This document shows, in pieces, positions 12,319 through 22,383 of a DNA stretch of 64,000 bases. The notes beneath the pieces are model-generated. The model searched no databases and was not told the DNA's origin. It worked only from the letters and a program-made list of their open reading frames with translations. Position 1 is the stretch's first letter. Every line of letters begins with the position of its first letter. The DNA comes from Alphaproteobacteria bacterium MarineAlpha5_Bin12 (lineage in GTDB: Bacteria; Pseudomonadota; Alphaproteobacteria; HIMB59; GCA-002718135). The DNA lies in NCBI GenBank assembly GCA_002937855.1, contig PTKS01000009.1, positions 5,362 through 69,361 of the forward strand, written 5' to 3'. Made by a program: the position numbers and the translations under genes.

Positions 12319-12329
12319 ATTTATATCCT

Positions 12330-12396
12330 TGGCGCGCCCGAGATGATTCGAACATCCGACCCCAGAATTAGGAATTCTGTACTCTATCCAAACTAG
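12330..12396 (-). repeat. Partial copy of the 3-prime ~67 nt of tRNA-Arg(CCT) (att-like scar; 5-prime acceptor arm absent)
   Basis: 12330-12380 is identical (51/51) to 13672-13722. There is one mismatch at 12381. Identity holds through ctctatccaa and then decays. Confidence 0.9.
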
Positions 12397-12414
12397 AAAT
12401 TAATTCAAGTCTTT

Positions 12415-12470
12415 CCGCGGGTTTTGAAAATGGAAAAGTGGTTTTTTGAAAGTGAAAAGAGACCTGAGAG
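12415..12470 (-). repeat. Left subterminal copy of a ~56-nt imperfect direct repeat (core 12432-12456)
   Basis: The core ggaaaag-tgg-ttttttgaa-a-gtgaa recurs at 13582-13607 as ggaaaag-ggtg-ttttttgaa-c-gtgaa. The flanks ccgYg and cct also recur. Confidence 0.6.
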
Positions 12471-12497
12471 AGACTTAAAAAATTTGATTAATTTCAT

Positions 12498-12731
12498 TCA
12501 TTTTCTAAAAATCCTATTTAACACTTTATAAGAAAAAATAGTTAATAGAATCCAAACGAAATAACCTAAAAGGTTAAACCAATAAAAAAAGCCTAAATCC
12601 TCCCTTACATAAGTCTCTATTTGCTCCCTCCCTACGTCGAATTGGTAATAAATCATCGCGCTAGCCATCGTTAAGATGAAACCTAGAAGGATTGCGGATA
12701 TCAGTTTTACGGTGAGTTTGAAATATTGCAT
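12498..12731 (-). CDS. Hypothetical 77-aa protein with two predicted transmembrane helices
   Basis: Hydrophobic stretches LISAILLGFILTMASAMIY and FYWFNLLGYFVWILLTIF. It is the last gene of the islet cassette. No family recognised. Confidence 0.5.
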   Translation of the reverse strand: MQYFKLTVKLISAILLGFILTMASAMIYYQFDVGREQIETYVREDLGFFYWFNLLGYFVWILLTIFSYKVLNRIFRK

Positions 12732-12741
12732 AATTTTTTCA

Positions 12742-19236: not shown

Positions 19237-21864
19237 TTATGAATTATTATCTATTATTTGATTTAACAAGTATTTTAAAATTCCACCTGATTTATAATAT
19301 TCTAATTCTTTTTCAGTATCAATTCTGCATAGAAGTTTTATTTTTCTATTTTTATTTATATTGCAATTAATAATTTTTTTTGGCTTAATTTTATTAATTT
19401 CATTAATAGTAAAAAATTCTTCACCAGTAATTTTTAATTTTTTTCTATTTTCATTATTAATAAATTCTAATGGCAAAACGCCCATACCAATCAAATTCGA
19501 GCGATGAATTCTTTCAAAACTTTCAGCAATTACAGCCTTTATTCCTAAAAGATTTGTTCCTTTCGCTGCCCAATCTCTTGAAGATCCTGTTCCATATTCT
19601 TTTCCTGCAATAATAATTAATGGAATTTTTTGTTCTTTGTATTCCATTGCTGTATCATATATGTTTGATTTATTTCCATTTAAAAAATTTTTTGTTAAAC
19701 CTCCAAAATCTCCTGAAACTAATTCGTTTTGAAGCCTAATATTGGCGAAAGTACCTCTAATCATTATCTCATGATTGCCTCTTCTTGAACCATAAGAATT
19801 AAATTCATTAAATGCTATCTGTCTTTCTGAAAGATATTTACCAGCCGGGCTATTTTTTTTTATTGCTCCAGCAGGAGAAATATGGTCTGTCGTAATGCTA
19901 TTATCTAACATAACTAGAACCCGCGCGTTAACAATATCACCTAAGTCTGATTGTTCTATAAAATAAGGTGGGCGTTTAACATAGGTGCTAGATGGGCTCC
20001 AATCAAATAAATCTTTTTTTATTATTTTGATTTTTTTCCAATTCTCATCACCCTGGCTAATATCTTTATATTTGTCGATAAAAATTTTTTTATTTAAATT
20101 ATTTTTGATAACATTTTGAATTTCCTGGCTATTTGGCCAAATGTCTTTCAAATAAACTTTATTGTTATTCTTGTCATAACCCAAATGATCTTTTTTAAAA
20201 TTAAAATTAATATTTCCTGCAATTGCATAAGCAATTACTATTGGAGGAGAGCCTAAATAATTTGCTTTTACTTCTGGATGTATTCGGCCCTCAAAGTTTC
20301 TATTGCCTGATAAAACTGAACAAACTGTAAAATTTTTTTCTAAAATTTTATCAGAAACTTCTTTTTTCAATGGACCTGAATTTCCTATACAAGTTGTGCA
20401 GCCATAACCCACAACATTAAAACCCATTTTATCAAGACTAATGGTTAGTCCACTGTCATCTAAATATTTACTAACAACTTTACTTCCAGGAGCAAAACTT
20501 GTTTTAACAAATTTTTTAATGTTTAATCCTTTTTCAAGAGCTTTTTTAGCTAACAATCCTGCTGCGACAAGAACATTTGGATTTGATGTATTTGTGCAGC
20601 TTGTGATTGCTGCTATTACAATTGATCCATCTTGTAATTCGCTATTTTGTAATTTATCTATCTTTTTTTGATTTTTTGTAAAATCTTGAAAAGATTTTGG
20701 AACTTGGTAAAGTTGAACTCTATCTTGTGGCCTTTTAGGTCCTGCCAAAGAACTTGAAACTTCACTTAAATTTATATTAACTATATCATTGTATTGAGAT
20801 GTATAACTATTATCTAACCACAGACCTTGAATTTCACTATATTGACGAACTAAGTTTAATTCATGTTTAGTCTTGCCAGTTAGAGCCAGATAATTAATTG
20901 TTTCTTGGTCAGTGGGAAAAAAACCGCATGTTGCTCCATATTCTGGAGACATATTCGCAATAGTTGCTCTATCTGCAAGAGTGATATTGCTGACCCCAGT
21001 TCCAATAAATTCTACAAATTTACCAACCACTCCTTTTTTTCTTAGATGTTCAGTCACAGTTAATACTAAATCTGTAGCAGTAACTCCTTCAGATAATTTG
21101 CCACTAAAGTTAACTGCAATAACTTCAGGTAAATTGATAGAAATAGGCTCTCCCAAAATTGTAGCTTCAGCTTCAATTCCTCCTACACCCCAACCTAAAA
21201 CTGAAAGTGCATTAATCATGGTAGTATGGCTATCAGTTCCAACTAAAGAATCTGGAAAAATAAATTTAGATCCATTAATGTTTTTGACCCATATTGTTTT
21301 TGTTAAATATTCTAAATTAACTTGATGACAAATTCCTGTTCCTGGAGGTACCACATTAAAATTCTTAAACGAATTTTGACCCCATTTTAAAAATTCATAT
21401 CTTTCTCTATTTCTGTCAAATTCTAATTCTACATTCTTACTGAACGAATGCTTATCTCCATAGTAATCAACTGAAACCGAATGGTCTATTACCAGATCAA
21501 CAGGAATTTTAGGGTTAATTAAATCTGGCTTAATACTTCTTTTTTTAAGCGCTTCTCTCATGGCTGCCAAATCTACAACAGCAGGAACACCAGTAAAATC
21601 CTGCATTAAAACTCTTGTTGGATAGAAAGAAAATTCTAAATTTTTATTTTTATAAATGGTTTTGAAATTTTTAAATTTTTCTAAATTAACATTCTTGTTT
21701 TCTTCATTTCTTAAAAAATTTTCAATTAAAACCTTTAAACTATATGGGACTACTTCATGTTTAATATTAATTTTATTAAAAAAAGTTTTTAAACTAAAAT
21801 ATTTATATTCCTTATTATCAATAATAATTGATTTTTTTGTTCTAAAACTATCTAAAGATTCCAT
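19237..21864 (-). CDS. acnA: Aconitate hydratase A
   Basis: 875 aa. Aconitase/IRP-type sequence with Fe-S ligand regions TSCTNTSNP and CTTCIGNSG. Confidence 0.95.
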   Translation of the reverse strand: MESLDSFRTKKSIIIDNKEYKYFSLKTFFNKINIKHEVVPYSLKVLIENFLRNEENKNVNLEKFKNFKTIYKNKNLEFSFYPTRVLMQDFTGVPAVVDLAAMREALKKRSIKPDLINPKIPVDLVIDHSVSVDYYGDKHSFSKNVELEFDRNRERYEFLKWGQNSFKNFNVVPPGTGICHQVNLEYLTKTIWVKNINGSKFIFPDSLVGTDSHTTMINALSVLGWGVGGIEAEATILGEPISINLPEVIAVNFSGKLSEGVTATDLVLTVTEHLRKKGVVGKFVEFIGTGVSNITLADRATIANMSPEYGATCGFFPTDQETINYLALTGKTKHELNLVRQYSEIQGLWLDNSYTSQYNDIVNINLSEVSSSLAGPKRPQDRVQLYQVPKSFQDFTKNQKKIDKLQNSELQDGSIVIAAITSCTNTSNPNVLVAAGLLAKKALEKGLNIKKFVKTSFAPGSKVVSKYLDDSGLTISLDKMGFNVVGYGCTTCIGNSGPLKKEVSDKILEKNFTVCSVLSGNRNFEGRIHPEVKANYLGSPPIVIAYAIAGNINFNFKKDHLGYDKNNNKVYLKDIWPNSQEIQNVIKNNLNKKIFIDKYKDISQGDENWKKIKIIKKDLFDWSPSSTYVKRPPYFIEQSDLGDIVNARVLVMLDNSITTDHISPAGAIKKNSPAGKYLSERQIAFNEFNSYGSRRGNHEIMIRGTFANIRLQNELVSGDFGGLTKNFLNGNKSNIYDTAMEYKEQKIPLIIIAGKEYGTGSSRDWAAKGTNLLGIKAVIAESFERIHRSNLIGMGVLPLEFINNENRKKLKITGEEFFTINEINKIKPKKIINCNINKNRKIKLLCRIDTEKELEYYKSGGILKYLLNQIIDNNS

Positions 21865-22078
21865 TTTAAAGATTTATTTTAATTTTATATATATTTACAA
21901 TTATGCTTTTTTTTAATTTTATCAATATAAGTTACTGTAAATACTTAAAAATTTAAGTAAAAAATAAGTAAAATTGTAAAATATTAAATAAATTATTTAT
22001 AAACTAAATTATTGACTTTGTGCGAAAGTTTTGAAAAAAAACATTAAGCCTTTATTGTTTTGCTAGATAGCGAAACAC

Positions 22079-22094
22079 TGTAGAAATTTCTACA
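22079..22094 (+). promoter_or_regulatory. Perfect 16-bp palindrome upstream of the small basic ORF (operator or 5-prime UTR hairpin candidate)
   Basis: tgtagaaatttctaca sits 24 nt upstream of the ATG at 22118. Confidence 0.35.
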
Positions 22095-22117
22095 CTAACT
22101 TATACAAGGAGCAAATA

Positions 22118-22243
22118 ATGGCTAAAAGAAGAAAAAAAGCTAAAAAAGCGGCGCCTAAGAAAAAAAGAAGAGCTGCACCTAAAAAGAAGAAAAAAGCAGC
22201 TAAGAAAAAAGCTAAAAAGAAAGCTAAAAAAAGAAGAAGATAG
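22118..22243 (+). CDS. 41-aa polybasic Lys/Arg/Ala protein (histone H1-tail-like or ribosome-associated candidate); absent from the ORF track
   Basis: MAKRRKKAKKAAPKKKRRAAPKKKKKAAKKKAKKKAKKRRR. SD AAGGAG lies 6 nt upstream, and two hairpin+T-run terminators follow. Confidence 0.55.
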   Translation: MAKRRKKAKKAAPKKKRRAAPKKKKKAAKKKAKKKAKKRRR

Positions 22244-22256
22244 TTGAATTTTCTAG

Positions 22257-22279
22257 CCTTTTAATAAAAAGGTTTTTTT
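22257..22279 (+). terminator. Weak AT-rich intrinsic terminator
   Basis: cctttt-aata-aaaagg followed by 7 T. Confidence 0.4.
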
Positions 22280-22317
22280 CTTAGGAATTAGAGATCTCTT
22301 AATGGTCTCTTTAAAAA

Positions 22318-22342
22318 GCGGGGTGTTAAGCCCCGTTTTTTT
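22318..22342 (+). terminator. Intrinsic terminator
   Basis: gcgggg-tgttaag-ccccg followed by 7 T. Confidence 0.7.
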
Positions 22343-22383
22343 ATGGCATTTCGCTCCTTTGTATCATAATAGTTTTGTTAATA

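Follow-up and report, generated by a model that had tools for sequence, protein, structure and literature searches.

The acnA-ccmA intergenic region

We analyzed a stretch of 64,000 nucleotides (nt) from Alphaproteobacteria bacterium MarineAlpha5_Bin12 (contig PTKS01000009.1), here called the window, i.e., the whole of that stretch, which has a guanine-cytosine (GC) content of 26.7%. The subject of this study is a small open reading frame (ORF) encoding a polybasic protein of 41 amino acids (aa), which sits in the 510-nt space between acnA and ccmA (Table 1) and is followed downstream by ccmA, ccmB, ccmC, ccmE and ccmF, the genes for cytochrome c maturation. This space is the largest ORF-free gap of the very compact window, with the second, of 423 nt, located at 12319-12741. 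An initial annotation of this DNA, made from the sequence alone, had described the space as the only long non-coding gap, of about 0.5 kb; it is indeed the largest but not the only one, and given the second gap, the argument for function drawn from this claim was overstated. The same annotation called the ORF unlisted, which is correct for the ORF list on which it drew but not for public gene callers, which do call the 41-aa gene.

The ORF is the one strongly polybasic ORF present in the 64-kb window. Codon counts agree exactly with the boundaries and composition reported initially, giving 21 Lys (16 AAA and 5 AAG), 7 Arg (all AGA), 10 Ala, 2 Pro and 1 Met, and the -1 frame is full of stops. 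The 41-residue chain has a calculated mass of approximately 4.7 kDa (the initiator Met may be removed), carries 28 positive charges and, apart from Ala, Pro and the initiator Met, lacks hydrophobic residues; it can therefore not be expected to fold alone and would have to act by binding polyanions. The biochemical class predicted for the protein, that of an intrinsically disordered polycation, follows from its sequence. With the elements that surround the ORF, the region from 22009 to 22342 would constitute a self-contained monocistronic gene: a conserved promoter region, a structured 5′ untranslated region (UTR) and a ribosome-binding site close to the consensus precede the 41-codon ORF, which is followed by intrinsic terminators in tandem.

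Table 1. Features of the acnA-ccmA region, with positions numbered along the window
Feature	Position	Strand	Description
acnA	19237-21864	-	
Conserved upstream block	22009-22036	+	Consensus ATTGTTGACTTTnnnCGnAAGTTTTG, window ATTATTGAC...; -35-like TTGACT at 22012-22017
Sigma-70-type promoter candidate	22031-22058	+	-35 TTGAAA at 22031-22036, 16-nt spacer, -10 TATTGT at 22053-22058; from a consensus scan
Hairpin 1	22060-22073	+	UUGCU-AGAU-AGCGA, just past the candidate -10; predicted in the minimum free energy (MFE) fold
Hairpin 2 (palindrome)	22079-22094	+	UGUAGA-AAUU-UCUACA in the 5′ UTR; TGTAGAAATTTCTACA, perfect 16 bp
Shine-Dalgarno (SD) sequence AAGGAG	22106-22111	+	6 nt before ATG
Polybasic coding sequence	22118-22243	+	41 aa, MAKRRKKAKKAAPKKKRRAAPKKKKKAAKKKAKKKAKKRRR (MAKRRKK...KKRRR), TAG stop; syntenic homologues, purifying selection, codon placement
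Terminator T1	22255-22279	+	A/U-rich stem AGCCUUUU-AAUA-AAAAGGUU (22255-22274), U7 tract to 22279
Intermediate hairpin	22290-22310	+	AGAGAUC-UCUUAAU-GGUCUCU; in the alignment, only in the window and near-identical contigs
Terminator T2	22313-22342	+	A-tract, GC stem GCGGGG-UGUUAAG-CCCCG(U) (22313-22341), U7
ccmA	start 22384 or 22375	+	

Conservation of the polybasic ORF

Loci for comparison were drawn via AcnA from species-representative genomes, a set that is unbiased with respect to the ORF, and by a scan of metagenomes with a pattern made of the conserved promoter block and AAGGAG, which gave at least 120 loci and was followed by an ATGGC filter; 111 of these loci have an ORF beginning MAK. 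In addition, gene calls on contigs from at least 96 blocks of marine assemblies include the identical 41-aa protein, and the gene order there is always Suv3-like helicase, acnA, polybasic ORF and ccmABC-E-F. Seven AT-rich single-cell genomes (27-29% GC, with AcnA approximately 60% identical) contain a divergently oriented polybasic ORF at the same place, which is 47-81 aa long and has the form MAKKKKKAA(PKKKKKAA)n...KKRRR. At least 111 metagenome contigs show, wherever room allows, acnA (-) upstream of the polybasic gene and ccmA (+) downstream of it. The CcmA proteins encoded at the metagenome loci are approximately 40-45% identical to that of the window, and 63-75% identical at L093, L140 and L185, the few loci that belong to the same clade as the window.

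These relatives supply at least 83 distinct nucleotide alleles, encoding 35-92 aa in 36 different lengths, and all are in frame. The alleles share the architecture MAKK(K/R)KKAA-(AAPK[KR]KK)n-KKRRR, with a fixed head, MAKK(K/R)KK, and a fixed tail, KKRRR/KRKR, and they differ by whole AAPK[KR]KK units; their overall composition is 51% K, 26% A, 12% R and 9% P. Only two frame exceptions were found among the 111 loci listed, i.e., a 3′ frameshift that affects the last residues (L129) and a 564-aa fusion (L163), both of which probably stem from faulty assembly or reads or from a chimeric contig. Where 24 close allele pairs of equal length were compared, 110 codon differences proved to be synonymous and 14 non-synonymous, with 114 of the 130 nucleotide differences located at codon position 3. 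As far as can be read from these alleles, this demonstrates that purifying selection acts at the level of the protein.

Conservation of the frame in relatives, with indels in multiples of three, had been proposed initially as the check on whether this DNA is coding. Indels do occur in threes, with the frame kept in the alleles described above and broken in the two exceptional contigs, and for this reason we reject the reading of the region as a mere spacer. The conserved frame and the dominance of synonymous changes bear out the view that a functional small coding gene is present here, and from these comparisons it is almost certain that the gene is real and conserved over deep divergence.

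The L163 fusion was also located on its contig, where the MAKKK... start at locus position 827 of the oriented strand runs into the 564-aa ORF. Approximately 30 of the 111 metagenome contigs listed end inside the polybasic ORF (for example, L090, L092, L099, L102, L104, L111, L113 and L127), and in some of them, such as L092, the true end of the contig lies within it. The repeat array, or heterogeneity of repeat number at the level of strains, seems to break assemblies and so to help hide the gene.

Codon usage of the family points the same way as its conservation. AAG makes up 24% of the Lys codons in the window ORF and 43.5% family-wide, as compared to 11.5% in the long ORFs of the window, an enrichment of approximately 4-fold for the family. 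The longest run of A is at most 7 in the window ORF and in the four relatives tested; for these five sequences, such an arrangement has P ≤ 0.001 if codons follow the usage of the genome, and P = 0.0003-0.007 if the codons already present are shuffled. Iterated AAA codons are known to lower protein output and to cause ribosome sliding (PMC4363877), and because of this penalty the placement of AAG is as expected from selection on translation or on the homopolymer stability of the coding sequence. The codon permutations demonstrate, for the sequences tested, selection against poly(A) tracks in the polybasic ORF.

It could still be argued that the acnA-ccmA spacer is an A-rich promoter/terminator region in which the ORF arose by chance. 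The AT-rich genome speaks in favor of this, as does the finding that perfect 16-bp palindromes, such as the one upstream of the ORF, are common by chance. Against it, the frame, start context and stop are kept across lineages whose CcmA shares only 40% identity, non-synonymous changes are greatly outnumbered by synonymous ones, AAG codons are placed non-randomly, no second such ORF is present in 64 kb, and the acnA-ccmA pair of Rickettsiales manages with a spacer of 100-260 nt. The conservation and codon tests refute a chance ORF as far as sequence analysis reaches, and we give this explanation next to no credence.

Promoter region and structured 5′ UTR

Element conservation was assessed on an alignment of three clades and on 110 distinct upstream regions. 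Since the metagenome loci were searched for and selected by the promoter block, AAGGAG and ATGGC, the invariance of these elements among them is imposed. The upstream block is, in addition, invariant in the window and the seven single-cell genomes fetched via acnA, and it occurs a single time in the window even when two mismatches are allowed; possible roles are those of an UP-like element, an activator site or a second promoter. A scan of viral contigs with the promoter-block pattern gave two matches, which we discarded as chance matches in unrelated sequence with no polybasic ORF downstream. The hexamers of the sigma-70-type promoter candidate are conserved; in its alignment columns, the relatives contain TTGGGA, then 16-17 nt, then TATGTT (65 sequences), TATAAT (18 sequences) or other variants.

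Two hairpins are predicted between the candidate -10 and the SD sequence. Provided that the -10 is assigned correctly, the first of them starts very near the transcription start. The counterpart of hairpin 1 in relatives (TCACU...AGUGA) shows changes on both sides at 7 of 7 pairs, with 86.5% of cells paired and with G-U wobbles. For both UTR hairpins together, 90.2% of cells are paired versus 40-60% in slid controls, a level that was reached by none of 500 shuffles. Hairpin 2 is the sequence that the initial annotation singled out as a perfect 16-bp palindrome 24 nt upstream of the ORF; the palindrome is perfect, but it ends 23 nt before the ATG. The window contains nine perfect 16-bp palindromes where approximately six are expected under a first-order Markov model, so that the perfection of this one is not beyond chance, was rejected as evidence, and had been given too much weight. 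Hairpin 2 carries weight because a hairpin at that position is conserved, and not because the palindrome is perfect. The main clades have GGAGG(G)..CCUCC at this position, and in the clade of the window the pairing is kept with other sequences, namely GUAGAG..CUCUAC (L101), AGAGGA..UCCUCU (L140) and GUGG(A)..CCCAC (L185). RNAalifold, run on an alignment made with MAFFT, did not recover the two UTR hairpins; it placed a stem of 5 bp within the imposed promoter block and paired CUCC with GGAG over 4 bp. Because MAFFT misregisters the clade of the window in this region, covariation of hairpin 2 was read from individual folds and was not counted.

In the main clades, which include L007 and L010, hairpin 2 pairs an SD-like arm with an anti-SD-like arm approximately 20 nt upstream of the real SD sequence (alignment columns 90-107 and 128-131). 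In the predicted folds of these clades, CCUCC could alternatively pair with GGAG of the real SD sequence, a possible translational switch; this alternative pairing is weak in the clade of the window, where the sequences differ. The UTR hairpins may stabilize the mRNA or control translation.

The SD sequence AAGGAG is present 6 nt upstream of the ORF, as had been reported initially. The sequence (T)ACAAGGAG followed by ATGGC is almost invariant, with two contigs containing TAATAAGGAG. Counting both strands, approximately 8 of the 27 copies of AAGGAG in the window lie 4-10 nt before the start of an ORF of at least 40 aa; a full and correctly spaced AAGGAG is thus uncommon in the window, as would suit a gene made to be translated efficiently.

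Terminators and searches for RNA families

Our analysis of the region 3′ of the ORF confirmed the two hairpins with T-runs noted initially as terminators (T1 and T2), and found a third hairpin between them. This region folds into three hairpins at -33.5 kcal/mol (z = -3.7 versus shuffles). In relatives, an A/U-rich hairpin with a T-run is present at the place of T1, after an invariant AGAAGAAGATAG, and the GGGG..CCCCGTTTT core of T2, which has the symmetry of a bidirectional terminator, is conserved in all clades aligned. A search of the locus region with Rfam 15 gave no gathering-level match in the window, and none at E ≤ 0.1 in the relatives L007, L010 and L093. A match to L20_leader was rejected at 34.7 bits (gathering threshold 58.7), and is explained by the A-rich stretch and the terminator.

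Homology and literature searches

Searches of the peptide against 5.8 billion proteins by word matching and HMMER returned nothing. There was no Pfam match at E ≤ 10 for the 41-aa protein and no relevant one for alleles of 80, 81 and 92 aa; NCBIfam and PDB chains gave no families and no chains at E ≤ 10, and PHROGs gave no match. The models of the chlamydial histone-like proteins Hc1 and Hc2 (PF07432 and PF07382) did not match the 41-, 80-, 81- or 92-aa alleles, in a search where the composition correction of HMMER limits sensitivity, and homology was detectable to none of the H1-like families tested. These searches are empty because composition correction removes the signal. The protein was also absent from an exact-sequence cluster look-up, although the contig index holds it, which we take to be a difference in indexing. 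In the searchable literature we found no description of the polybasic gene, and Meyer et al., in their screen of SAR11 intergenic regions, do not name it as a misannotated coding region.

Tandem AAPKKK(K) repeats are present on viral contigs in IMG/VR (L209, 1750-2007; L210, 1-237; L211, 8994-9455; L212/L214; and L213), where they form C-terminal tails of unrelated ORFs; for example, 8-9 such repeats are located in a tail encoded by a giant-virus metagenome-assembled genome (MAG) of 23-28% GC. These viral tails use the same polycationic module by convergence, and its recurrence on unrelated ORFs fits a generic nucleic-acid-binding module.

Lineage and origin of the gene

The CcmA of the window is identical to PPR40770.1, and a cluster 71% identical to it holds a protein labelled "Pelagibacteraceae bacterium". 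These source labels, the GC content of the window, its extreme compaction and the abundance of carriers in assemblies of the GOS, Tara and ALOHA type suggest that the carriers are SAR11-like, i.e., Pelagibacterales in a broad sense. At loci of 32% GC (AcnA 57% identical), a gene of the LysR type adjoins acnA, and there is neither ccmA nor a polybasic ORF within the 4-kb flank fetched. Three Rickettsiales loci (L028, L031 and L036, from MAGs and Candidatus Megaera) contain the divergent acnA-ccmA pair, approximately 100-260 nt apart, with no polybasic ORF between them. Since Rickettsiales keep the pair without the gene, the pair seems to be older than the gene, which looks from its distribution like an innovation of the marine clade. 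For the same reason, the gene may have been born within this lineage, possibly de novo, and an origin in the A-rich acnA-ccmA spacer is conceivable.

Proposed function

By analogy with known proteins, we propose that the polybasic protein is a stand-alone nucleoid protein resembling the tail of histone H1, which would neutralize and compact AT-rich DNA; we hold the chances of this reading to be about even. The product would be a disordered polycation of 35-92 aa, with repeats of the AAPK(K/R)KK type between the fixed head and the KKRRR/KRKR tail. It would act purely electrostatically along the 27% GC genome, where it would neutralize the charge of the phosphates and assist in compaction inside a very small cell, with the number of repeats tuning the dose of charge and not a fold. 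The upstream block and the UTR hairpins would serve to restrain the output of a potentially toxic polycation, or to stabilize its mRNA. The likeness of the AKKA/PKKK composition to the C-terminal tails of H1 and to bacterial H1-like proteins, pointed out in the initial annotation, is borne out by the composition of the whole family.

Several points weigh against this proposal. DNA binding is inferred from composition, and RNA, ribosomes and polyphosphate are bound by the same chemistry. As homology was not detectable, the resemblance to H1-like families is compositional or convergent. Hairpin 1 may straddle the start of transcription or lie partly upstream of it. The conservation of the promoter block, AAGGAG and ATGGC is unbiased only in the seven genomes fetched via acnA and is built into the metagenome set, and the assignment of the carriers to a SAR11-like group is drawn from source labels and GC content and not from phylogeny.

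The same polycation might act on RNA, as a loosely bound accessory protein of the ribosome, an RNA chaperone or a substitute for polyamines on rRNA or mRNA. Like many small ribosomal protein genes, the polybasic gene encodes a small and extremely basic product and has a strong SD sequence with its own promoter and terminator, and its structured 5′ UTR with conserved hairpins recalls the leaders of autoregulated ribosomal protein genes. However, the number of repeats sets the length of the protein anywhere from 35 to 92 aa, no non-basic residue is conserved as an anchor, the protein matches no NCBIfam or Pfam ribosomal model, and the gene lies outside ribosomal operons. The large length polymorphism disfavors a ribosomal protein with a defined rRNA pocket. 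The initial suggestion that very small, very basic proteins can be ribosome-associated is accordingly weakened by a 2.6-fold length polymorphism; a role on RNA, including a loose association with RNA or ribosomes, we consider unlikely, though a real contender. A tether for polyanions like AlgP or PhaF, which would bind polyphosphate or bridge it to DNA and thereby organize granules or buffer polyphosphate, draws on the fact that the chemistry of the K/A/P repeats is the same as in the KPAA domain of AlgP (PMC9239181). The 41-aa protein lacks the folded N-terminal domain of AlgP and PhaF, and no ppk or ppx gene is present in the neighborhood, so that we regard such a tether as quite improbable.

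A different alternative removes the function from the peptide altogether, and has translation of a Lys-rich leader control the read-through of T1 and T2 into ccmABC. An ORF rich in one amino acid and followed by terminators is the arrangement that this would call for, and ccmA starts approximately 42 nt past T2 with, at best, a weak promoter-like site of its own. The MFE and centroid folds, however, show independent hairpins and no pairing that competes with T1 or T2, with co-transcriptional alternatives explored in part. Moreover, the spacing of Ala and Pro, the head and the tail are conserved and non-synonymous changes are rare; the ORF has anywhere between 35 and 92 codons, the very stable GC stem of T2 is kept in every clade aligned, and the downstream cytochrome c maturation genes lack a logical link to lysine supply. 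A regulatory leader is on these grounds highly improbable. Returning to the H1-tail-like nucleoid protein, a stronger form of this proposal would have a four-letter protein of the protamine or H1-tail type as a major, and perhaps the main, nucleoid counter-ion and compaction factor in streamlined cells of the SAR11 type, which arose de novo in the acnA-ccmA spacer and whose output is set by the upstream block and UTR hairpins, possibly by binding of the protein to its own mRNA; this we put forward as speculative and doubtful.

Comparison with known polycationic proteins

The polybasic protein resembles H1 tails and bacterial H1-like repeat domains while matching none of their families, and from its sequence it does not appear to be categorically new. 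With H1's C-terminal domain (CTD), SPKK repeats and the CTD-only H1 of trypanosomatids it shares a disorder dominated by K, A and P and turns of the (A/S)PKK type spaced by Ala. Like such tails, it would be expected to bind DNA by electrostatic attraction and to prefer the minor groove of AT-rich sequence. Unlike the linker histones H1/H5, the protein has no winged-helix globular domain (the Pfam model Linker_histone is unmatched), is only 35-92 aa long and is bacterial, and unlike the H1 tail, the family is almost without Ser and Thr, so that there is no obvious phosphoregulation.

DNA binding and nucleoid association are documented for AlgP and PhaF of Pseudomonas, for the chlamydial Hc1 and Hc2 and for BpH1 of Bordetella, and the number of repeats varies between strains in Hc2 and BpH1. 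Variation in repeat number like that of Hc2 is present in the 35-92-aa alleles, as a resemblance and not as homology. These proteins are larger than 100 aa, and all but Hc2 have a folded or distinct N-terminal part that is absent from the polybasic protein. The tiny ribosomal proteins bL34, bL36, bTHX, bS22/bL37 and eL41 are similar to it in small size, extreme basicity and strong translation signals. Such tiny basic ribosomal proteins are constant in length and have conserved positions by which they fit into a pocket of the rRNA, in contrast to the 2.6-fold range in length, the 36 lengths and the lack of any conserved non-basic residue in the polybasic family. Protamines and ScvA, from the small-cell variant of Coxiella, are likewise tiny stand-alone polycations thought to condense DNA. 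They are Arg-rich (and Gln-rich) condensers specific to a stage, whereas the polybasic protein is Lys-rich and nothing indicates stage specificity.

AlgP has a folded domain at its N terminus and KPAA repeats after it, and it localizes to polyphosphate granules and is needed for their spacing; the domain in AlgP/PhaF that consists of KPAA repeats binds DNA, and was likened to H1 by the authors of that work (PMC9239181). The polybasic protein shares the tandem repeats of Lys, Ala and Pro with AlgP and PhaF, which differ from it by their size of more than 100 aa, their N-terminal domain and a KPAA unit in place of AAPK[KR]KK. In the polybasic family, the repeat array is the entire protein, built from four amino acids.

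If the carriers are of the SAR11 type, they are among the most abundant organisms of the sea, with very few regulators and chromatin proteins. Were the proposed function true, a conserved and strongly signalled polycation would be a missing piece in the packing and charge balance of a 27%-GC genome in a minute cell. The polymorphism in repeat number provides a natural dose series for relating charge density to the organization of the nucleoid or of other polyanions. The family also illustrates how at least 83 alleles can escape detection, through the composition correction of profile searches, through contigs that end in repeats, and through tryptic proteomics, which would miss the protein because trypsin would destroy it.

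Neighboring sequence features

Between T2 and the ccmA start, the sole promoter-like site is weak (ATGGCA, 16 nt, CATAAT, at 22343-22370), and from this arrangement transcription of ccmA, or of ccmABC, may depend in part on read-through from the polybasic gene. On the minus strand at 22344-22365, we observed the sequence GATACAAAGGAGCGAAATGCCATAA, which is closely like the start region of the polybasic gene (ATACAAGGAGCAAATAATGGC) but opens an ORF of only two codons. This copy is not present in the main-clade relatives aligned, and may be what is left of an inverted duplication, or due to chance.

The 423-nt gap contains, at 12341-12395 on the minus strand, a tRNA-like 3′ half with a T-arm, an acceptor and a CCA-like end, which scores 23.4 bits with the Rfam tRNA model (below the gathering threshold of 29). 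ARAGORN and Rfam called no tmRNA anywhere in the window. By eye, a AUUCGACG motif that recalls the 5′ regions of tmRNA is located approximately 300 nt upstream of the tRNA-like half on the same strand, and possible readings of this part of the gap are a tmRNA of divergent sequence or a fragment of a tRNA.

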